Source: a virus (taxonomy: Duplodnaviria > Heunggongvirae > Uroviricota > Caudoviricetes). Taken from it: 23,861 nucleotides of DNA. The stretch covers positions 1-23,861 of the IMG/VR virus record IMGVR_UViG_2579778956_000004; one strand, given 5' to 3'. Made by a program: the position numbers and the translations under genes. The notes beneath the pieces were generated by a model. The model was not told where the DNA came from and ran no database searches. It saw only the letters and a program-made list of their open reading frames with translations. Shown here in pieces: positions 3,710 through 21,481 of the stretch; within the stretch, counting starts at the first letter, position 1; each line of letters begins with the position of its first letter.

Positions 3710-3786
3710 TTACCGTTGAGGTAATAATTATGCGTATCTGGTTTGATGTCAATAGATATGAGTTAAAAAAATTACCCGTTAGGTAA
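3710..3786 (-). promoter_or_regulatory. Putative early-left promoter/operator region (OL-like) with two TTACC-N5-GGTAA palindromes
   Basis: Perfect inverted repeats TTACCGTTGAGGTAA (3710-3724) and TTACCCGTTAGGTAA (3772-3786) lie between the repressor terminator and the first leftward gene. Confidence 0.5.
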
Positions 3787-3796
3787 TCGAATAGGC

Positions 3797-3823
3797 AATA
3801 AAAAAGCCGCCATAAGGCGGCTT
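3797..3823 (-). terminator. Rho-independent terminator downstream of the repressor gene
   Basis: Plus strand AATAAAAAAGCCGCC-ATAA-GGCGGCTT. On the minus strand this is a GCCGCC/GGCGGC stem with a 4-nt loop followed by a U-tract, directly after the repressor stop at 3844. Confidence 0.65.
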
Positions 3824-3843
3824 ACTTACTGAAAAATATGATT

Positions 3844-4428
3844 TTATTGTTTGTTTTTTTCGTTCTGGTTGATGACAAATTCAATGTAACTTTCGATCTT
3901 TGCCTTCTCTGTTTCAGGTAACAATGCGTAGCGCGAGCGGTCATAGTTGATAGTTGCAGGATCATGCGGATGAATCAGTAGTTCATATCCGTGACGCCCG
4001 AATGCAGATGCAACATTCTCCAGGGTGGAAATGGAAACGCTGACCTCATTGTTTAACAGGCGGCTTATTGTCACCTGGGCGACGCCGGATGCGCGGTGAA
4101 GTTTTCCCTGAGTTGAAAGGTCGCGGCTTTCACTCATCCAGCGTTCCAGGTTGTGAGCCGCCAGTTGACCAATGTCGCTTGGTCCGACAGGCTGAAAACC
4201 TTCCTGAGAAAGCGAGCGATCGATATCAAGCCAGTTACGGGGTTTATTGGCGGCAGCTTCAATTTTTCGCGCAACCTGGTCGCCGATAACCTTCTTGCCA
4301 AGAGCCCAGCGGTTTACCAGATTTGCCTGAGTTCCAAGTTTTTCAGCCATCCGCGTCTGAACACCATTGAATTCACGGTCGATCAAGTCGTTGAGATTTT
4401 GCCTGCGGACGTCCTGGATACTTTTCAT
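3844..4428 (-). CDS. Prophage repressor, tandem helix-turn-helix, no S24 peptidase domain
   Basis: 194-aa product with two XRE-like HTH segments (TRMAEKLGTQANLVNRWALGKKVIGDQVARKIE and GKLHRASGVAQVTISRLLNNEVSVSISTLENVASAFG). No Ala-Gly/Ser-Lys autocleavage module is recognisable. Divergent from a Cro-like gene across an operator-rich spacer. Confidence 0.7.
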   Translation of the reverse strand: MKSIQDVRRQNLNDLIDREFNGVQTRMAEKLGTQANLVNRWALGKKVIGDQVARKIEAAANKPRNWLDIDRSLSQEGFQPVGPSDIGQLAAHNLERWMSESRDLSTQGKLHRASGVAQVTISRLLNNEVSVSISTLENVASAFGRHGYELLIHPHDPATINYDRSRYALLPETEKAKIESYIEFVINQNEKNKQ

Positions 4429-4483
4429 TTTCTGGAAAATCGCCTCATATCTGAATCAGAAGATGATTCAATTTAAAGCAATA

Positions 4484-4550
4484 TTACCCAACAGGTAAAT
4501 GCACCTCATGGGTAACTATCCTTGATTTTTGTTACCTTATAGGTGAATAT
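4484..4550. promoter_or_regulatory. Divergent immunity promoter/operator region (OR-like) with three operator-like sites
   Basis: TTACCCAACAGGTAA (4484-4498, perfect), GCACCTCATGGGTAA (4501-4515, half-site degenerate), TTACCTTATAGGTGA (4532-4546, one mismatch). Candidate rightward sigma-70 promoter TTGATT (4522-4527), 17-nt spacer, GAATAT (4545-4550) overlaps the third site. Confidence 0.5.
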
Positions 4551-4582
4551 TTATTATCTGAAATAAATATCAGGCAATAGCT

Positions 4583-4813
4583 ATGAGCGATAACGGACAT
4601 TTCGATTTCAAAAAGCACTGGCTTGCACTTACTCCGGATGAGCGTGAAGCCTTCGCACAGGAAGCCGGAACGACGAGTCACTATATCCAGACTCACTTAA
4701 CAGGTAAGCGCAAAATGCCAGGTAAGGTATTGATGGATGGGCTTTTTAAAGCCTGTAAATCAAGACAATGGCTGCGCTCAAAAGCAGAACTGGCATACTT
4801 CTTCTACTCATGA
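4583..4813 (+). CDS. Cro-like small DNA-binding regulator
   Basis: 76-aa ORF transcribed divergently from the repressor, immediately downstream of the operator cluster. Product MSDNGHFDFKKHWLALTPDEREAFAQEAGTTSHYIQTHLTGKRK... is consistent with Cro/YdaS-like HTH proteins. Confidence 0.55.
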   Translation: MSDNGHFDFKKHWLALTPDEREAFAQEAGTTSHYIQTHLTGKRKMPGKVLMDGLFKACKSRQWLRSKAELAYFFYS

Positions 4814-4835
4814 TATCCAGCCACAACCCTCTGTA

Positions 4836-4858
4836 GACCGCCATCCGGCGGTCTTTTC
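4836..4858 (+). terminator. Rho-independent terminator after the Cro-like gene (tR1-like position)
   Basis: GACCGCC-ATCC-GGCGGTC stem-loop followed by TTTTCAT, 23 nt downstream of the Cro-like stop. Confidence 0.6.
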
Positions 4859-4868
4859 ATATCTATTC

Positions 4869-4883
4869 GTACCTCAAAGGTAA
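4869..4883. promoter_or_regulatory. Operator-like palindrome upstream of the replication operon
   Basis: GTACCTCAAAGGTAA, one mismatch from TTACC-N5-GGTAA. Lies between the terminator and the ATG at 4963 and is preceded by the 11-mer ATCTATTCGTA (4861-4871). Confidence 0.4.
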
Positions 4884-4962
4884 TAAAAACCAAATATGGT
4901 TGATCTTTTTTTTGTGTCAGCACAAAATAACCGTAATCCCAATACTAATAACAGGGCTTACC

Positions 4963-5163
4963 ATGGAAATCATTACACGTATTGATGCCGCAAAGCGCGG
5001 ACTTAAACGCTACTACACCGGAAAAACATGTAAGCACGGACATGACAGTGAACGCTGGGTTTACAACGGACACTGTGTTGAGTGCACCATGGAATCAAAC
5101 CGTCGTATCAGGGCAGAGATTAAGCAGATCATGATTAATTCCTCCCCACAACATTCAAGCTGA
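4963..5163 (+). CDS. Small Cys/His-rich protein (66 aa), possible zinc-ribbon regulator
   Basis: Start chosen at the internal ATG at 4963 (MEIITRIDAAKRGLKRYYTGKTCKHGHDSERWVYNGHCVECT...), preceded by AGGG. The upstream extension in the ORF track would run through the promoter region. Cys-x-His-Gly-His ... His-Cys-x-x-Cys spacing suggests metal binding. Confidence 0.45.
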   Translation: MEIITRIDAAKRGLKRYYTGKTCKHGHDSERWVYNGHCVECTMESNRRIRAEIKQIMINSSPQHSS

Positions 5164-5178
5164 TAGCGGAGATTAATC

Positions 5179-5994
5179 ATGAGCAGACATGCAACAGATT
5201 GGGCCTGGGAGACAGATCCAGGTAGCTCGTCATTAAAGCTCATACTGCTCTCGATGGCTGACAGAGCCGATGAATATAACCTCTGCTACCCCAGCATAGA
5301 ACGCCTCGTTAAAGACACTTGCCTGAATAAAAAAACCGTGCAGGCCGGACTTATATCGCTCATGAAAATGGGGCTTATTTCAGATACCGGGGAGAGAAAG
5401 GGAGCGACAAAAAGAGTGCGGGTTTTCTCTCTTAATATAACCAAAAACGGGAACATTAAAGGCAACCGAGAGGGGGGCAATGAACCCGAAAACGGTAATG
5501 TTACCGAAAACGGGAATATACCCAAAAACGGGATGTTGAATGATCCCAAAAACGGGATGTTGAATGATCCCAAAAACGGGATCCAGAACCAGTCATATAA
5601 CCAGTCATTTAACCAAGAGAGGGAGAGCAGGACAAAAAACGGGGATTCTGTGCATCATGACCCCGGCGCAAACAACGCCGTGATGAATAACTTTGTTCCT
5701 CCTGGTGGGTCAGGGCAATTAGGCAAATTTGTCATGCATGAACAATGGCAGCCATCAGATGACTTTCTTCGGAAAAGCTCATTGCAGGGGATCTACCTGG
5801 ACAGTCTGCCAACGGCACAGGAACTTGCAGAGTTCAGAATTTACTGGATGGCTGAGGGTAAGGCATACCATCAGGCACAGTGGGAGCAGAAGCTGGCAAG
5901 GCGGCTGCAGATTAGCAGACAGAAGCAATCAACATTACCTGATAACAACGTTCCGCACTGGAACAGCCCTGAAGCATGGGAGGATTTCTTGTGA
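5179..5994 (+). CDS. Replication initiator, lambda-O-like (N-terminal HTH, repeat-encoded linker, C-terminal domain)
   Basis: SD GGAG before the ATG at 5179. N-terminal LKLILLSMADRADEYNLCYPSIERLVKDTCLNKKTVQAGLISLMKMGLI is HTH-like. The central region is encoded by the iteron repeats. The stop overlaps the next gene start (GTGA at 5991-5994). Confidence 0.7.
   Translation: MSRHATDWAWETDPGSSSLKLILLSMADRADEYNLCYPSIERLVKDTCLNKKTVQAGLISLMKMGLISDTGERKGATKRVRVFSLNITKNGNIKGNREGGNEPENGNVTENGNIPKNGMLNDPKNGMLNDPKNGIQNQSYNQSFNQERESRTKNGDSVHHDPGANNAVMNNFVPPGGSGQLGKFVMHEQWQPSDDFLRKSSLQGIYLDSLPTAQELAEFRIYWMAEGKAYHQAQWEQKLARRLQISRQKQSTLPDNNVPHWNSPEAWEDFL
5441..5645 (+). repeat. Iteron-like direct repeats inside the initiator gene (candidate origin of replication)
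   Basis: Seven copies of an AAAACGG(G/T)A core at about 5443, 5489, 5506, 5524, 5548, 5572 and 5634, including two perfect tandem 24-bp units CCCAAAAACGGGATGTTGAATGAT (5521-5544, 5545-5568). Followed by AACCAGTCAT x2 (5587-5608) in an AT-richer stretch. Confidence 0.6.
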
Positions 5995-8510
5995 ACAACG
6001 TTTTTACCGCGATACAAAACCGTGACGGAGAAGCCCTTTCTCGCATGTCAGGTTATGAGCATCAGTACACCAACAATGACAACGTGGTGAACATGTCAGC
6101 AGAGAGGCTTGTTGATGCCCTTTTCAAACAGCTGAAACAACTGTTTCCGGCGGCAGTGGTAACCAACCTGAAGACGCCAGAGCAGGAAGTTGCTGCAAAA
6201 CAGCAGTGGATTGCTGCGTTTGCCGAAGGTGGGATCCGAACCCGTGAACAGGTTTCTGCTGGTATGCGCCACGCCCGCGCCAGTGAATCTCCGTTCTGGC
6301 CGTCGCCAGGGCAATTCATCAAGTGGTGCAAAGACAGCAAGATGGTTCTTGGCGTCACCATTGACGATGTGATGGCGGAGTTTCACCGGTACAGCAAGGA
6401 AAAAAGTTTATATCCTGGTGGTCCCGAAAGATTCCCGTGGCGGCATCCGGTTATGTACTGGGTCGTATGTGATACCCGCCGTGCAATGTATCAGCGCCAG
6501 CTTAGCGAGATTGAGGTTGAGAAACACGCGCGCAGGCTGCTCGATGATTGGGCGAAAAAGGTGGCTTCCGGACAGCAGATACCCGATCCGGTGATCAGCA
6601 TACAGGCAAAGCCAGAGCCCATGAGTACACCTCCGGACACAGGGAGAGACGTTTACCATCCACCAGGGCGAAGTTTCGGGTGCATGCCTAACGCCGCTAT
6701 TCGCCGTGCAGATAGTAACTACTATCGCGCCGTTACAGCAGGCAAAACAGGTACTTTGCGCCCTTCGCATACAGAAGGCACATCATGGGATGGCTGGGGC
6801 GGATCCGGTGATGATGACACTGGCATTGAGTGGGAATATCTGCACAGTGGTTTTGGCATTGCCCGTATCACTGCTGCAAATGGAACTACTGCAACTGCCG
6901 AGGTGATTTCCTATATCCCTTCGCAGGTAGTTGGCGAGGATAATGCCAGCTATAAATGGGCTAAATATGCCTGGAACAGTGTTAATGGTTATCCTGGCAC
7001 TGTTGTTTATTATCAACAACGTCTTTACTTCGCCGCATCGACTGCGTTCCCTCAGACTATCTGGGCCAGCCGTACTGGGGATTATAAGGATTTTGGCAAA
7101 AGCAATCCTACGCAGGATGACGACAGAATTATCTACACCTATGCCGGGCGTCAGGTTAATGAGATCCGTCACCTGATTGATGTTGGTTCGCTGGTGGCAC
7201 TGACTTCCGGAGGTGAGTACGTCATCACCGGCGACCAGAACAAAGTGTTAACCCCATCATCATTTGCATTCAGCTCTCAGGGATCAAATGGCTCAAGCAA
7301 CGTCCCGCCAATTGCCGTGGCGAATATTGCTTTGTTCGTCCAGGAGAAAGGCAGTGTTGTACGTGATCTGGCCTACTCATTCGATGTTGACGGCTATCAG
7401 GGGAACGACCTGACCATCCTTGCCAATCATCTTTTTCAGAAGCACAGCATTGTTGACTGGTGCTTCTCGATTGTCCCTTACTCCAGCGCCTTCTGCATTC
7501 GTGATGACGGTAAATTGCTGGTGATGACCTATTTGCGTGATCAGCAGGTTTTTGCATGGGCACCACAATCCAGTACCGGGAAATATGAAAGCACATGCAG
7601 TATCAGCGAAGGCAATGAAGATGCGGTGTATTTCGTCGTTAACCGAACCGTTAACGGGCAAACAGTGAGATACATAGAGCGACTGTCCAGCCGTTTATTT
7701 ACCAGCGATGAAGATGCTTTCTTTGTTGATTCTGGCCTTAGCTATGATGGAAGAAATACGTCTGACAGAACGATGACCATCACTGGTGGTTCTGGTGAAT
7801 GGGATTACCGCGCGGAATATACAATCAGTATTTCTGGTGGTGCGTACTTCACCAGTAGTGATGTCGGCGCGCAACTACAGTTCCCTTATGCCGGAACTGA
7901 TCCTGATACTGGCGATGAAGTGTCAAAAGAATTACGTTGCGACATTATTTCTGTAACCAGCAATACCGCTGTAGTGGTTCGTGCTAACAGGAACGTCCCG
8001 CCATCCCTCAGGAATGTGGCCACCACGAACTGGCAGATGGCGCGCCGGACATTTGGCGGCTTGTCTCATCTTGAAGGCCAGACCGTAAACATCCTCTCTG
8101 ATGCGAACGTGGAACCACAGAAAGTGGTTTCCGGAGGTGCCGTCACGCTGGAATCTCCGGGGGCTGTAGTGCACATCGGCCTGCCAATAACTGCTGAATT
8201 CGAAACACTGGATATCAACATTAACGGACAGGAAACGCTGCTGGACAAAAAACAGGTGATCCCGTCCGTTACTCTGGTTGTGAATGCCAGTCGCGGCATC
8301 TGGGCGACTACGCCCGGCGGTAAATGGTACGAATATCCACAGCGTGAATTCGAGTTCTACGATGATCCTGTTGATGACGCTACCGGAAAAGTAGAAGTAA
8401 AACTGGACAGTAACTGGGGCAAAAACGGACGTGTAAGAATCCGTCAGCTTGACCCGTTGCCGCTGTCTGTTCTTGCCGTTATTCCTCGTCTTACTGTTGG
8501 GGGATTCTGA
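5991..8510 (+). CDS. Chimeric ORF: lambda-P-like replication protein N-terminal region continuous with about 600 aa of structural-type (tail-tube-like?) sequence
   Basis: Start assigned to GTG 5991, with SD GGGAGGA 6 nt upstream and coupled to the O-like stop. The first ~215 aa include KQQWIAAFAEGGIRTREQVSAGMRHARASESPFWPSPGQFIKWC, which closely parallels lambda P as I recall it (RQWVLAFRENGITTMEQVNAGMRVARRQNRPFLPSPGQFVAWC). The remainder is a Gly/Ser/Thr-rich sequence with no intervening stop, and its stop overlaps the next gene start. Confidence 0.6.
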   Translation: MNNVFTAIQNRDGEALSRMSGYEHQYTNNDNVVNMSAERLVDALFKQLKQLFPAAVVTNLKTPEQEVAAKQQWIAAFAEGGIRTREQVSAGMRHARASESPFWPSPGQFIKWCKDSKMVLGVTIDDVMAEFHRYSKEKSLYPGGPERFPWRHPVMYWVVCDTRRAMYQRQLSEIEVEKHARRLLDDWAKKVASGQQIPDPVISIQAKPEPMSTPPDTGRDVYHPPGRSFGCMPNAAIRRADSNYYRAVTAGKTGTLRPSHTEGTSWDGWGGSGDDDTGIEWEYLHSGFGIARITAANGTTATAEVISYIPSQVVGEDNASYKWAKYAWNSVNGYPGTVVYYQQRLYFAASTAFPQTIWASRTGDYKDFGKSNPTQDDDRIIYTYAGRQVNEIRHLIDVGSLVALTSGGEYVITGDQNKVLTPSSFAFSSQGSNGSSNVPPIAVANIALFVQEKGSVVRDLAYSFDVDGYQGNDLTILANHLFQKHSIVDWCFSIVPYSSAFCIRDDGKLLVMTYLRDQQVFAWAPQSSTGKYESTCSISEGNEDAVYFVVNRTVNGQTVRYIERLSSRLFTSDEDAFFVDSGLSYDGRNTSDRTMTITGGSGEWDYRAEYTISISGGAYFTSSDVGAQLQFPYAGTDPDTGDEVSKELRCDIISVTSNTAVVVRANRNVPPSLRNVATTNWQMARRTFGGLSHLEGQTVNILSDANVEPQKVVSGGAVTLESPGAVVHIGLPITAEFETLDININGQETLLDKKQVIPSVTLVVNASRGIWATTPGGKWYEYPQREFEFYDDPVDDATGKVEVKLDSNWGKNGRVRIRQLDPLPLSVLAVIPRLTVGGF

Positions 8511-16842: not shown

Positions 16843-16866
16843 GGCCGCTTTCGCGGCCTTTTCTTT
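16843..16866 (+). terminator. Rho-independent terminator after the small membrane genes
   Basis: GGCCGC-TTTC-GCGGCC stem-loop followed by TTTTCTTT. It overlaps the stop codon of the convergent minus-strand gene. Confidence 0.5.
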
Positions 16867-17122
16867 ATGTGGTTTGTTTTCGTAATTGTTCGGCACAATA
16901 GTCTAGATGTGTTTGCAGATCCTGCATAGACATCTGTGAGCTGGTGACGTAGTTAATCAGTGCAGTCAGTTCGGCAAGTGGGCCATCGACATTAAATCCA
17001 TCTTTATCGAGATCCCGGAGTAATTTCATCAAGTGCGATCCATCCACCAGTGACCTGACGCCTCCCGGCGTGTGAATCCTTTCGGTAAATCCGTCTTCCA
17101 GTGGATAGTGATACTGCTGCAT
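16865..17122 (-). CDS. Small SOS-regulated protein (85 aa), candidate antirepressor
   Basis: Start assigned to ATG at 17122 (MQQYHYPLEDGFTERIHTPGGVRSLVDGSHLMKLLRDLDKDGF...) with GGAG 8 nt upstream. The longer 126-aa ORF in the track would read through the LexA box and operator. A near-consensus LexA box sits about 20 nt upstream of this ATG. Confidence 0.55.
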   Translation of the reverse strand: MQQYHYPLEDGFTERIHTPGGVRSLVDGSHLMKLLRDLDKDGFNVDGPLAELTALINYVTSSQMSMQDLQTHLDYCAEQLRKQTT

Positions 17123-17141: not shown

Positions 17142-17161
17142 AACTGTATATTTATACAGTA
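17142..17161. promoter_or_regulatory. LexA (SOS) box
   Basis: AACTGTATATTTATACAGTA matches the E. coli LexA consensus TACTGTATATATATACAGTA at 18 of 20 positions, with the CTGT-N8-ACAG core perfect. On the minus strand a TATAAA -10-like hexamer lies inside the box. Confidence 0.75.
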
Positions 17162-17198
17162 GCAAATAATTTGTTTGCTATCCAGCACGTTTTGCAAA

Positions 17199-17213
17199 TT
17201 ACCTGAAAGGTAA
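17199..17213. promoter_or_regulatory. Operator-like palindrome TTACC-N5-GGTAA between the SOS gene and the tailspike gene
   Basis: TTACCTGAAAGGTAA, a perfect inverted repeat of the same type as at the immunity region, followed by the shared 11-mer ATCTATTCGTA (17215-17225). Confidence 0.45.
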
Positions 17214-17317
17214 TATCTATTCGTATTTACAGTCTTTCTATCCATATGTGGTTTTGCAGGTAATAGAATAACCAGATATGCGGCGCAACGGGTGCTGCGA
17301 CTATCTGGAGATTTAAC

Positions 17318-19480: not shown

Positions 19481-20594
19481 CTTTTGAGTTGAATCTCAAC
19501 TCAATGTTTTTATAGGTTATTAGTGATATTATCACAGTAATCATAAATGTAATTATTGACATAATGAAGTAGGAAAGGATTCCTATTTCATATAGGTTAA
19601 ACCCAATTATTTTAAATACGTATAAAGATAGATATATAATAGCTTGGTGGCTAAGGTATATGCTATAGCTAATCATACCAATCAATACTATGTTGCTGGA
19701 TTGAAGAAACTTAGGCTTAATGTAGCAAATGCTGGAGAATAATATTGTTACTAAAATAAATCTATAAATCCCGTATCCGTCATCTTTTTGATAAATGCAG
19801 GTGAGCAATGTTAATATTGCTGTAATTGATATAATCAACTTCCAAGATTTTTTATCATGGTTTAGTGAATTATCGTAAACAACTTTACCAACCGCACCAC
19901 TAATGAAAAATAAAAACATATCTGTATTTAAATTAGACTTTTCTATAGTATAAATACCAATAATAAACAGTGTTATGGAAATATATTTTTCATTTTTATA
20001 AAAAAGAGATATAGCTACAATTGATATATAGAAAATCCATTCATACGGCAGAGTCCATGATACCACGCCAATACTGTGTATCCATGAGTCTTTGAAGAAA
20101 ATTCCACCGCCAAGAAACCCAAACGCTAATAGCTGAATAAGTGCTTTTCTGTAATCATCAAGACTAGCTCCATCAGACATAAATATTATAAACACTGCCA
20201 TGTTTATCAATGCAAAAAATAAAAACGCAGGTGCTAGTCGTTTTATTCTCTTCATCATAAAATCATCCGCGCTTTTTACATTTTTTATTCTTGATAAAAA
20301 AAGGAACCCGGTAATTGCGAAAAATATCTCCACCCCTAATGAGCCAAAATTATCATATATCGGCATTATTTTATATGGAATGTTTTGGTTTGTTATCCCT
20401 ATCGTAGGTAAGTAGTAAGCAAAATGATTGAAAAAAACCATAATACATGCCACACCCCTAAGACCTTCAAGCCACAAAATATTGTTTTGTGAATTGTTTA
20501 CTATCCCTGATTTCACAGGAATAAGAAATACAAAAAAAATAAAAATTAAGAATGCAATAAGCTGATATACGCTAAAATCATAGAAAAAACTCAT
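19446..20594 (-). CDS. Acyltransferase-3 family membrane protein, O-antigen acetyltransferase-like (lysogenic conversion candidate)
   Basis: 382-aa polytopic membrane protein with LWLEGLRGVACIMVFFNHFAY near the N-terminus, typical of Oac/OafA-type acyltransferases. Strongly AT-rich relative to flanks. SD AGGA precedes the ATG at 20594. The 3' end overlaps the tailspike 3' end by 35 nt. Confidence 0.8.
   Translation of the reverse strand: MSFFYDFSVYQLIAFLIFIFFVFLIPVKSGIVNNSQNNILWLEGLRGVACIMVFFNHFAYYLPTIGITNQNIPYKIMPIYDNFGSLGVEIFFAITGFLFLSRIKNVKSADDFMMKRIKRLAPAFLFFALINMAVFIIFMSDGASLDDYRKALIQLLAFGFLGGGIFFKDSWIHSIGVVSWTLPYEWIFYISIVAISLFYKNEKYISITLFIIGIYTIEKSNLNTDMFLFFISGAVGKVVYDNSLNHDKKSWKLIISITAILTLLTCIYQKDDGYGIYRFILVTILFSSICYIKPKFLQSSNIVLIGMISYSIYLSHQAIIYLSLYVFKIIGFNLYEIGILSYFIMSIITFMITVIISLITYKNIELRFNSKVNSSLQVSHTK
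19484..19511 (+). terminator. Putative rho-independent terminator after the tailspike gene
   Basis: TTGAGTTGA-ATC-TCAACTCAA hairpin (9-bp stem) followed by TGTTTTT, starting 4 nt after the tailspike stop. It lies inside the 3' end of the convergent acyltransferase ORF. Confidence 0.45.
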
Positions 20595-20772
20595 TACTCA
20601 ATCCTGTTTTATACGTAATTTATTTCATTTTAAATGCTAAACCATCCACAGTCACTCAGTTCTATGCCGCGTTTGTGTTTTTTGTGGCTAGACATCAGGT
20701 AATTTACTCCATATATGGTTTATTGTGTATGATGAACTCACCAACTAAGGGGGTTTTTATGCACAGTAAACG

Positions 20773-21186: not shown

Positions 21187-21481
21187 GCTGCTTTTATTGA
21201 TAGCCAATGCGGTTATCTGTTCTGCGATAGCAATCCGCGTCGGAACCTTCCGGAGAAATGGATCGCAACACCGAAGGTTGGGAGGCTGGCTTGCTTATTT
21301 CCTGATTGTTGCTGCAGCTAGTATTCCTGTTCGTGTCGTCTATGCAATCTGGTTACGTACGCCAATGGCTGTGGATTTATCTGAGGTCATTATCAATGCT
21401 GTCATGCTTGCCGCGGTTATTAAAACACGCGGTAACGTTGTTCAGATTTTCAAAATATCGAGGTCTAAACATGGAGATTAA
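21173..21481 (+). CDS. Second small membrane protein of the lysis cassette (holin/antiholin-like)
   Basis: 102 aa with three hydrophobic segments and a basic C-terminus. Overlaps the previous gene by 14 nt and the endolysin start by 11 nt. Confidence 0.5.

Follow-up and report, generated by a model that had tools for sequence, protein, structure and literature searches.

The Rep/Ant lysogeny switch of Salmonella phage SPC32H is reportedly treated in Kim & Ryu 2013 (J Virol) and Kim et al. 2016 (PNAS), with structures in PDB entries 5D4Z and 5D50. In SPC32H, Rep acts as a tetramer on palindromic sites and is disassembled by Ant (PMC9638917), the ant gene is LexA-controlled (PMC7380047) and, according to secondary sources, Rep is not cleaved during induction (PMC7380047, PMC9638917). 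The C-terminal tetramerisation fold of this Rep resembles that of a DNA-looping regulator (PMC9986798). For phage epsilon15, the sequence record AY150271.2 labels seven ATTACC-N5-GGTAAT sites as 'protein_bind: repressor'. Three of them form the OL group; of the rest, one precedes terS, one precedes gp3/portal, one separates gp19 (the Ant homolog) from the tailspike gene and one follows the replication gene. As far as could be checked the annotations are predictions. The same record carries no annotation of three sites between rep and cro or of a site after cro, though the sequence clearly has them. The record of phage phiV10 contains no operator annotation.

We analyzed a stretch of viral DNA of 23,861 nucleotides (IMG/VR record IMGVR_UViG_2579778956_000004), referred to below as the window. 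It shares ~98% identity with Escherichia phage phiV10, which belongs to Uetakevirus, the genus of epsilon15-like phages, and is a deletion-bearing phiV10-like prophage with the prophage gene order from int to the lysis genes. Two deletions relative to phiV10 were identified: ~1.3 kb inside recET (window position ~2948), and ~13.9 kb at position ~6696, reaching from the P-like replication gene to the homolog of the tail gene p15. The larger deletion created a fusion ORF (5976-8510) of the replication gene and the tail-gene homolog, and with it went the terminase, portal and capsid genes and the post-replication promoter, all with their operators. Relative to phiV10 the prophage is defective. 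A search of 5426 complete E. coli genomes found none with the junction of the ~13.9-kb deletion. Each flank of the junction was present in 534 of these genomes; the prophage type is very common in E. coli. The circuit of Rep, Ant and LexA box is intact together with its operators despite the loss of ~15 kb, and this defective copy could still provide immunity and an SOS response through it.

Distribution and conservation of the operator palindrome

A first-pass annotation of the window had described perfect or near-perfect TTACC-N5-GGTAA palindromes, all of them intergenic, as one operator that returns at a leftward operon, in the divergent immunity region, ahead of the replication operon (the post-cro region below) and between the SOS gene (ant) and tailspike. 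A re-scan of the window reproduced all coordinates and match descriptions, and the recurrence at the four regions was confirmed. Perfect sites are found at 3710-3724, 3772-3786, 4484-4498 and 17199-17213. Two sites carry one mismatch (4532-4546, with a GGTGA half, and 4869-4883, with a GTACC half), and one carries two (4501-4515, with a GCACC half). All seven sites are confined to four intergenic gaps with a total length of 651 bp, or 2.7% of the window. In 100 dinucleotide shuffles of the window no perfect site occurred, and 200 further shuffles gave a mean of 0.015 perfect sites compared with the four observed. Allowing up to one mismatch, six sites were observed vs. 0.43 expected from shuffles.

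Seven complete or near-complete relatives were compared (phiV10, HEMP4, Tyrion, BUCT554, Kp4865-1, SPC32H and epsilon15). They contain 8-11 perfect sites each, with 0.01-0.035 expected from shuffles, and 14-18 sites each when one mismatch is allowed. In SPC32H, for which gene coordinates were checked, 10 of 10 perfect sites are intergenic, and intergenic DNA makes up 6.8% of the genome. The early sites of the relatives comprise an OL group of two or three, a group of three from rep to cro and one after the cro terminator, and an operator pair follows the replication genes. A pair is located just 5' of terS and one site 5' of the portal operon. Further sites lie between ant and the tailspike gene, 5' of the holin cassette and, with one mismatch, 5' of int. 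The sites at terS, the portal operon, the lysis cassette, int and the post-replication promoter make the regulon larger than first described, and several of them were lost from the window through the ~13.9-kb deletion.

The mismatched sites of the window coincide in position with perfect sites of epsilon15, SPC32H and a Klebsiella phage, and because perfect sites stand at these equivalent positions in relatives the weaker sites are not chance matches. The symmetrised consensus of 61 unique perfect sites of the family extends to A-TTACC-WWWWW-GGTAA-T, with 94% A/T at the central base. The OL and ant-tailspike sites of the window correspond to annotated epsilon15 sites, and its OR and post-cro sites match unannotated epsilon15 sites at equal positions. 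The first-pass annotation had also presented the arrangement as a wiring that differs from lambda. The dispersed sites and the repressor domains described below bear out the difference from lambda; the wiring is not new, because the epsilon15 record already annotates scattered sites, including a distant late-region site.

Selection on the sites was assessed by population footprinting, using 57-63 unique haplotypes that flank an identical rep gene in IMG/VR contigs. Around rep, 4 of 60 half-site columns were variable, as were 15 of 30 columns of the central N5 and 99 of 366 other intergenic columns. The half-sites are as constrained as the adjoining coding sequence, and the central five bases are free to vary. 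At the distal site (17199-17213) the GGTAA half was kept in 55 haplotypes, and the left half was TTACC in about two thirds of haplotypes and TCACC in one third; the TCACC variant recurs at OR1 and at the holin-upstream site. When the columns were pooled, half-sites (8/70 variable) differed significantly from other intergenic positions (212/546, Fisher p = 2e-6), and 19 of 35 central N5 columns were variable.

Two local differences in site content were seen. The holin-upstream site of the relatives (TCACC-N5-GGTAA) is degenerate in the window (20680-20706), where only the GGTAAT half is kept, because the left side belongs to a different mosaic segment with a different O-antigen-modification gene. 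Some relatives encode a Bro-N 'anti-immunity' protein downstream of ant, and in these a further perfect Rep operator separates ant from the Bro-N gene (phiV10 20497-20511, Tyrion 21393-21407, HEMP4 34783-34797); the window has neither the Bro-N gene nor this operator.

Rep and the early-region operators

The features of the early region are listed below. Operators are given without strand, and promoter positions are predictions from the sequence plus elements conserved across relatives.

3710-3724: OL-proximal operator, perfect; abuts the PL -10 and covers the predicted start site
3724-3752, minus strand: predicted PL, TTGACA-17-AATTAT, between the two OL operators; conserved in relatives
3772-3786: OL-distal operator, perfect 17-mer ATTACC-N5-GGTAAT; centre at about -62 from the PL start
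3844-4428, minus strand: rep, 194-aa repressor, homolog of SPC32H Rep with N-terminal HTH and invariant NLVNRW
4471-4499, minus strand: predicted rep promoter, TTTACC-17-TTAAAT, read from the sequence; conserved
4484-4498: OR3-like operator, perfect; overlaps the -35/spacer of the predicted rep promoter
4501-4515: OR2-like operator, GCACC...GGTAA, two mismatches; just upstream of the rep promoter -35
4532-4546: OR1-like operator, TTACC...GGTGA, one mismatch; in the -35/spacer of PR
4529-4534 (TTGTTA) and 4552-4557 (TATTAT), plus strand: PR, the rightward promoter
4583-4813, plus strand: gene in the Cro position, 76 aa, followed by a terminator at 4835-4854
4869-4883: post-cro operator, GTACC...GGTAA, one mismatch; precedes a weak promoter-like element
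4900-4905 (TTGATC) and 4923-4928 (CAAAAT): weak post-cro promoter-like element, leading to ORF 4963-5163 and a DnaT-like gene

A consensus promoter scan of the window detected PL and PR and missed the rep, post-cro, ant and tailspike promoters. The two OL operators are 62 bp apart, centre to centre. Pairs with this spacing surround a promoter both at OL and at the post-replication position in every relative (63 bp in one Klebsiella case), and the spacing is kept although the intervening sequence diverges (window 3710-3786; 7328-7404 in L001; equivalents in L002-L007). Such conserved pairs would fit a single oligomer that spans both sites. From OR3 to OR2 to OR1 the spacing is 17 bp and then 31 bp, a layout kept in all relatives, and the OR2 position holds a perfect site in the Salmonella and Klebsiella relatives. 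The post-cro element (TTGATC-17-CAAAAT) has a half-site at its start point and reads as a weaker copy of the OL design. Two candidate interpretations of the layout were rejected: a lambda-like reading with operators at OL and OR only, given the dispersed sites, and a roadblock ("stoperator") role inside operons, given that in the window all sites are intergenic and after terminators.

The ORF that opens the post-cro operon (4963-5163, 66 aa) encodes a Cys/His-rich product (CKHGH...CVEC) similar to a zinc-ribbon regulator, for which Pfam gave no match. This product may be the transcription factor that acts on a second motif, CATAT(R)TGGTT, described in the next section.

The window Rep is 100% identical to the repressor of phiV10 and of ZX5, and overexpression of this identical protein in phage ZX5 blocked lytic growth (PMC9782041). 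It matches SPC32H Rep (PDB 5D50_A) over its full length (residues 1-190, E = 4e-42). Identity to the window Rep is 42-100% among the relatives and about 42-45% for SPC32H Rep, and the NLVNRW stretch in the N-terminal recognition helix is invariant in six of six aligned Reps. Pfam returned HTH families only for Rep, with HTH_3 in the C-terminal half and a weak Cro-like match in the N-terminal half; no peptidase S24 (autocleavage) domain was found by this search.

Three findings support the single-repressor regulon proposed by the first-pass annotation: the motif is conserved genus-wide, the epsilon15 record annotates such sites as repressor-binding, and the 194-aa protein is homologous to SPC32H Rep. 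We infer, with a probability of roughly 85%, that TTACC-N5-GGTAA (A-TTACC-W5-GGTAA-T) is the operator of an SPC32H-type Rep and that the sites form one Rep regulon. That the same motif accompanies Reps of only 42% identity fits the invariant NLVNRW stretch. The four lineages of Rep, from phages of E. coli, Enterobacter, Klebsiella and Salmonella, use an identical motif and have the recognition helix in common, leaving no repressor/operator covariation to compare. A search of viral contigs with the Rep alignment found no divergent helices, as in every locus returned Rep was 100% identical to that of the window. An otherwise unrelated repressor, the S24-type cI of Pseudomonas phage PseuP_224, resembles Rep in the N-terminal domain only, at 39% identity. 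Directly 5' of this cI (2420-2475) are two TTACC-N4-GGTAA palindromes, with a spacer one base shorter.

It is improbable that the palindrome is bound mainly by a different regulator, such as the 76-aa protein in the Cro position, the product of ORF 4963-5163 or a PerC-like/AlpA-like protein. Several regulators are indeed encoded close by, Cro shares the operators of the repressor in lambdoid switches, and the 76-aa protein, which had no Pfam match and has no family assignment, could bind these sites too. However, the three sites in the interval from rep to the Cro-position gene are placed as a repressor's own operators should be, and an invariant Rep recognition helix pairs with an invariant motif across Reps that are 42% identical. 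The Pseudomonas phage, which shares just the N-terminal domain of Rep, has equal half-sites, and the epsilon15 annotation names the repressor. Even less credible, and already refuted by shuffles and conservation, is a chance or compositional origin of the recurrence in intergenic DNA that is AT-rich and where GGTAAT resembles a -10 hexamer, as the observed counts were reached by no shuffle in any of eight genomes, site positions are conserved across genera, and half-sites are under purifying selection while their central bases drift.

The ant/tailspike region and its distal operator

The distal operator lies between two divergent genes, with the following features.

16865-17122, minus strand: ant, 85-aa antirepressor, close homolog of SPC32H Ant (the "SOS gene" of the first-pass annotation)
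17142-17161, minus strand: LexA (SOS) box TACTGTATAAATATACAGTT, overlapping the predicted ant -10
17156-17161 (-10, TACTGT) and 17179-17184 (-35, TGGATA), minus strand: predicted ant promoter, based on conserved elements
17199-17213: distal operator, perfect 17-mer; centred near -57 relative to the predicted start of ant and near -70 relative to that of tailspike
17241-17269, plus strand: predicted tailspike promoter, TCCATA-17-TAGAAT, with CATATGTGGTT at 17243-17253 and a GGTAAT half-site at 17259-17264

The window Ant matches SPC32H Ant (PDB 5D50_E) over 84 residues (E = 4e-47), with 85.6% identity by tblastn, and ant is divergent from the tailspike gene as in SPC32H. The LexA box has no mismatch to the pattern, with 0.16 boxes expected at up to three mismatches, and is kept in seven relatives. 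Across E. coli, Salmonella and Enterobacter phages Ant is 82-100% identical, and in Klebsiella phages 60-63%. This conservation, while the partner Rep falls to 42% identity, is unexpected for an interacting pair, and suggests either a small conserved interface or cross-reactive antirepression.

The predicted ant promoter (TGGATA-17-TACTGT) is present in all close relatives, with a spacer of fixed length and variable sequence. The gap of 14 nt between the distal operator and the predicted ant -35 is invariant in relatives. On the other side, the distance from the operator to CATATGTGGTT-N5-GGTAA-TAGAAT is exactly 28 nt in all relatives though the sequence diverges, and the portal promoter has the same core as that of the tailspike gene. 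The operator is thus fixed in its geometry relative to both divergent predicted promoters, overlapping the core of neither. As it is upstream of both core promoters, Rep bound there need not repress the antirepressor. At ant/tailspike, portal and holin alike the operator is 50-80 bp 5' of the predicted starts, and since it lies outside the core promoters simple steric repression is not evident there.

A second near-palindrome, CATAT(R)TGGTT (core ACCATATATGGT), occurs ~30-55 bp from Rep operators. In the window it is found at 17243-17253 (tailspike), 20710-20720 (holin) and 4891-4901 (post-cro). In complete relatives it is also present 5' of the portal operon and sometimes in the spacers of the OL and post-replication promoters.

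The distal site may serve the tailspike gene rather than ant. It would then belong to a class of upstream Rep operators that, jointly with a half-site at the -10, silence late promoters (portal, tailspike, holin), and ant would be controlled by LexA only; we regard this as a serious possibility that falls somewhat short of even odds. Tailspike, portal and holin share a layout in which the Rep operator is followed after 28-38 nt by CATATRTGGTT. At tailspike and portal, N5 and then a GGTAAT half-site directly next to the -10 come after this motif; holin lacks the half-site. The 28-nt gap is invariant despite sequence divergence, and for induction to work, ant has to be expressed at a time when Rep has not yet been inactivated. 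Against this, the 14-nt gap to the ant -35 is equally invariant, so that the geometry is fixed to both promoters, and with its centre at about -70 from the tailspike start the site is no better placed for occlusion.

Somewhat more doubtful is that Rep bound at about -57 damps ant, giving a LexA-gated toggle of mutual inhibition in which Rep represses ant and Ant inactivates Rep. The operator directly borders the predicted ant promoter on its upstream side at a conserved spacing, and the weaker TCACC half in one third of haplotypes is what would be expected of an affinity-tuned site. However, the operator overlaps neither the -35 nor the -10, binding at -57 might just as well activate or have no effect, and strong repression would block SOS induction. 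If the toggle were true, it would sharpen the commitment to induction.

A proposed single-repressor switch and its known counterparts

In the switch that we propose, Rep would consist of an N-terminal HTH and a C-terminal tetramerisation and Ant-binding domain, with no autocleavage domain. In the lysogen, Rep would occupy operators at every transcription unit. PL would be bracketed by the operator pair 62 bp apart, and the rep-cro region would hold a lambda-like triple, with OR1 on PR, OR3 on the rep promoter and OR2 just upstream of the rep promoter. Single operators would act ahead of the post-cro promoter and in the divergent region between ant and tailspike. Induction would proceed without cleavage of Rep: cleavage of LexA, whose box lies over the ant -10, would derepress ant, and Ant would then remove Rep from all operators simultaneously. 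In this scheme we infer Rep as the binder, the promoter positions, the pairwise binding by tetramers and the effect at the distal site.

A more specific version, which we offer tentatively and think unlikely to hold in full, places Rep on two sites at a time. At OL and at the post-replication promoter, the promoter would be clamped between two operators, exactly 62 bp apart, that are joined by one tetramer. At late-type promoters the half-site at the -10 would be the partner bridged to a strong upstream operator. A LexA-gated loop of mutual inhibition between Rep and Ant would be closed by the operator near -57 of ant, the whole forming a single-repressor switch without an antitermination cascade. 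This two-site geometry with its feedback may not have been described previously.

Compared with lambda, the window has the same number of operators (three, at 4484, 4501 and 4532) between divergent genes for the repressor and the protein in the Cro position, and probably a similar geometry, with operators on PR, on the repressor promoter and just upstream of the repressor -35. Unlike in lambda, the operators are found genome-wide, not limited to OL and OR, and include pairs 62 bp apart. Rep also differs in having HTH families as its only Pfam matches and no S24 autocleavage domain; the C-terminal domain of its homolog serves tetramerisation and Ant binding, and by analogy induction here would run through a LexA-controlled antirepressor.

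In phages P1 (C1) and N15 (CB), one primary repressor has operators scattered over many transcription units, including the antirepressor locus, and the operators of P1 are asymmetric. The likeness to these phages is in wiring only, and no sequence relationship is expected.

With epsilon15, the window shares the 17-bp palindrome ATTACC-N5-GGTAAT at orthologous intergenic positions. The resemblance to SPC32H extends to the two-domain architecture of Rep, a related Ant, the LexA box over the ant promoter, the gene order with ant divergent from tailspike, and TTACC-N5-GGTAA at matching positions. The differences are that the E. coli lineage has a degenerate OR2 (GCACC), that OL of the window has two operators rather than three, and that the window is a deleted, defective prophage. 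Taken together, no new kind of regulation is seen, as the motif and its dispersed layout are annotated in epsilon15 and the Rep/Ant mechanism has been solved for SPC32H; what this locus adds to these systems are testable details, namely the invariant 62-bp pairs, the upstream placement of the operator at ant/tailspike, and the second palindrome at late promoters.
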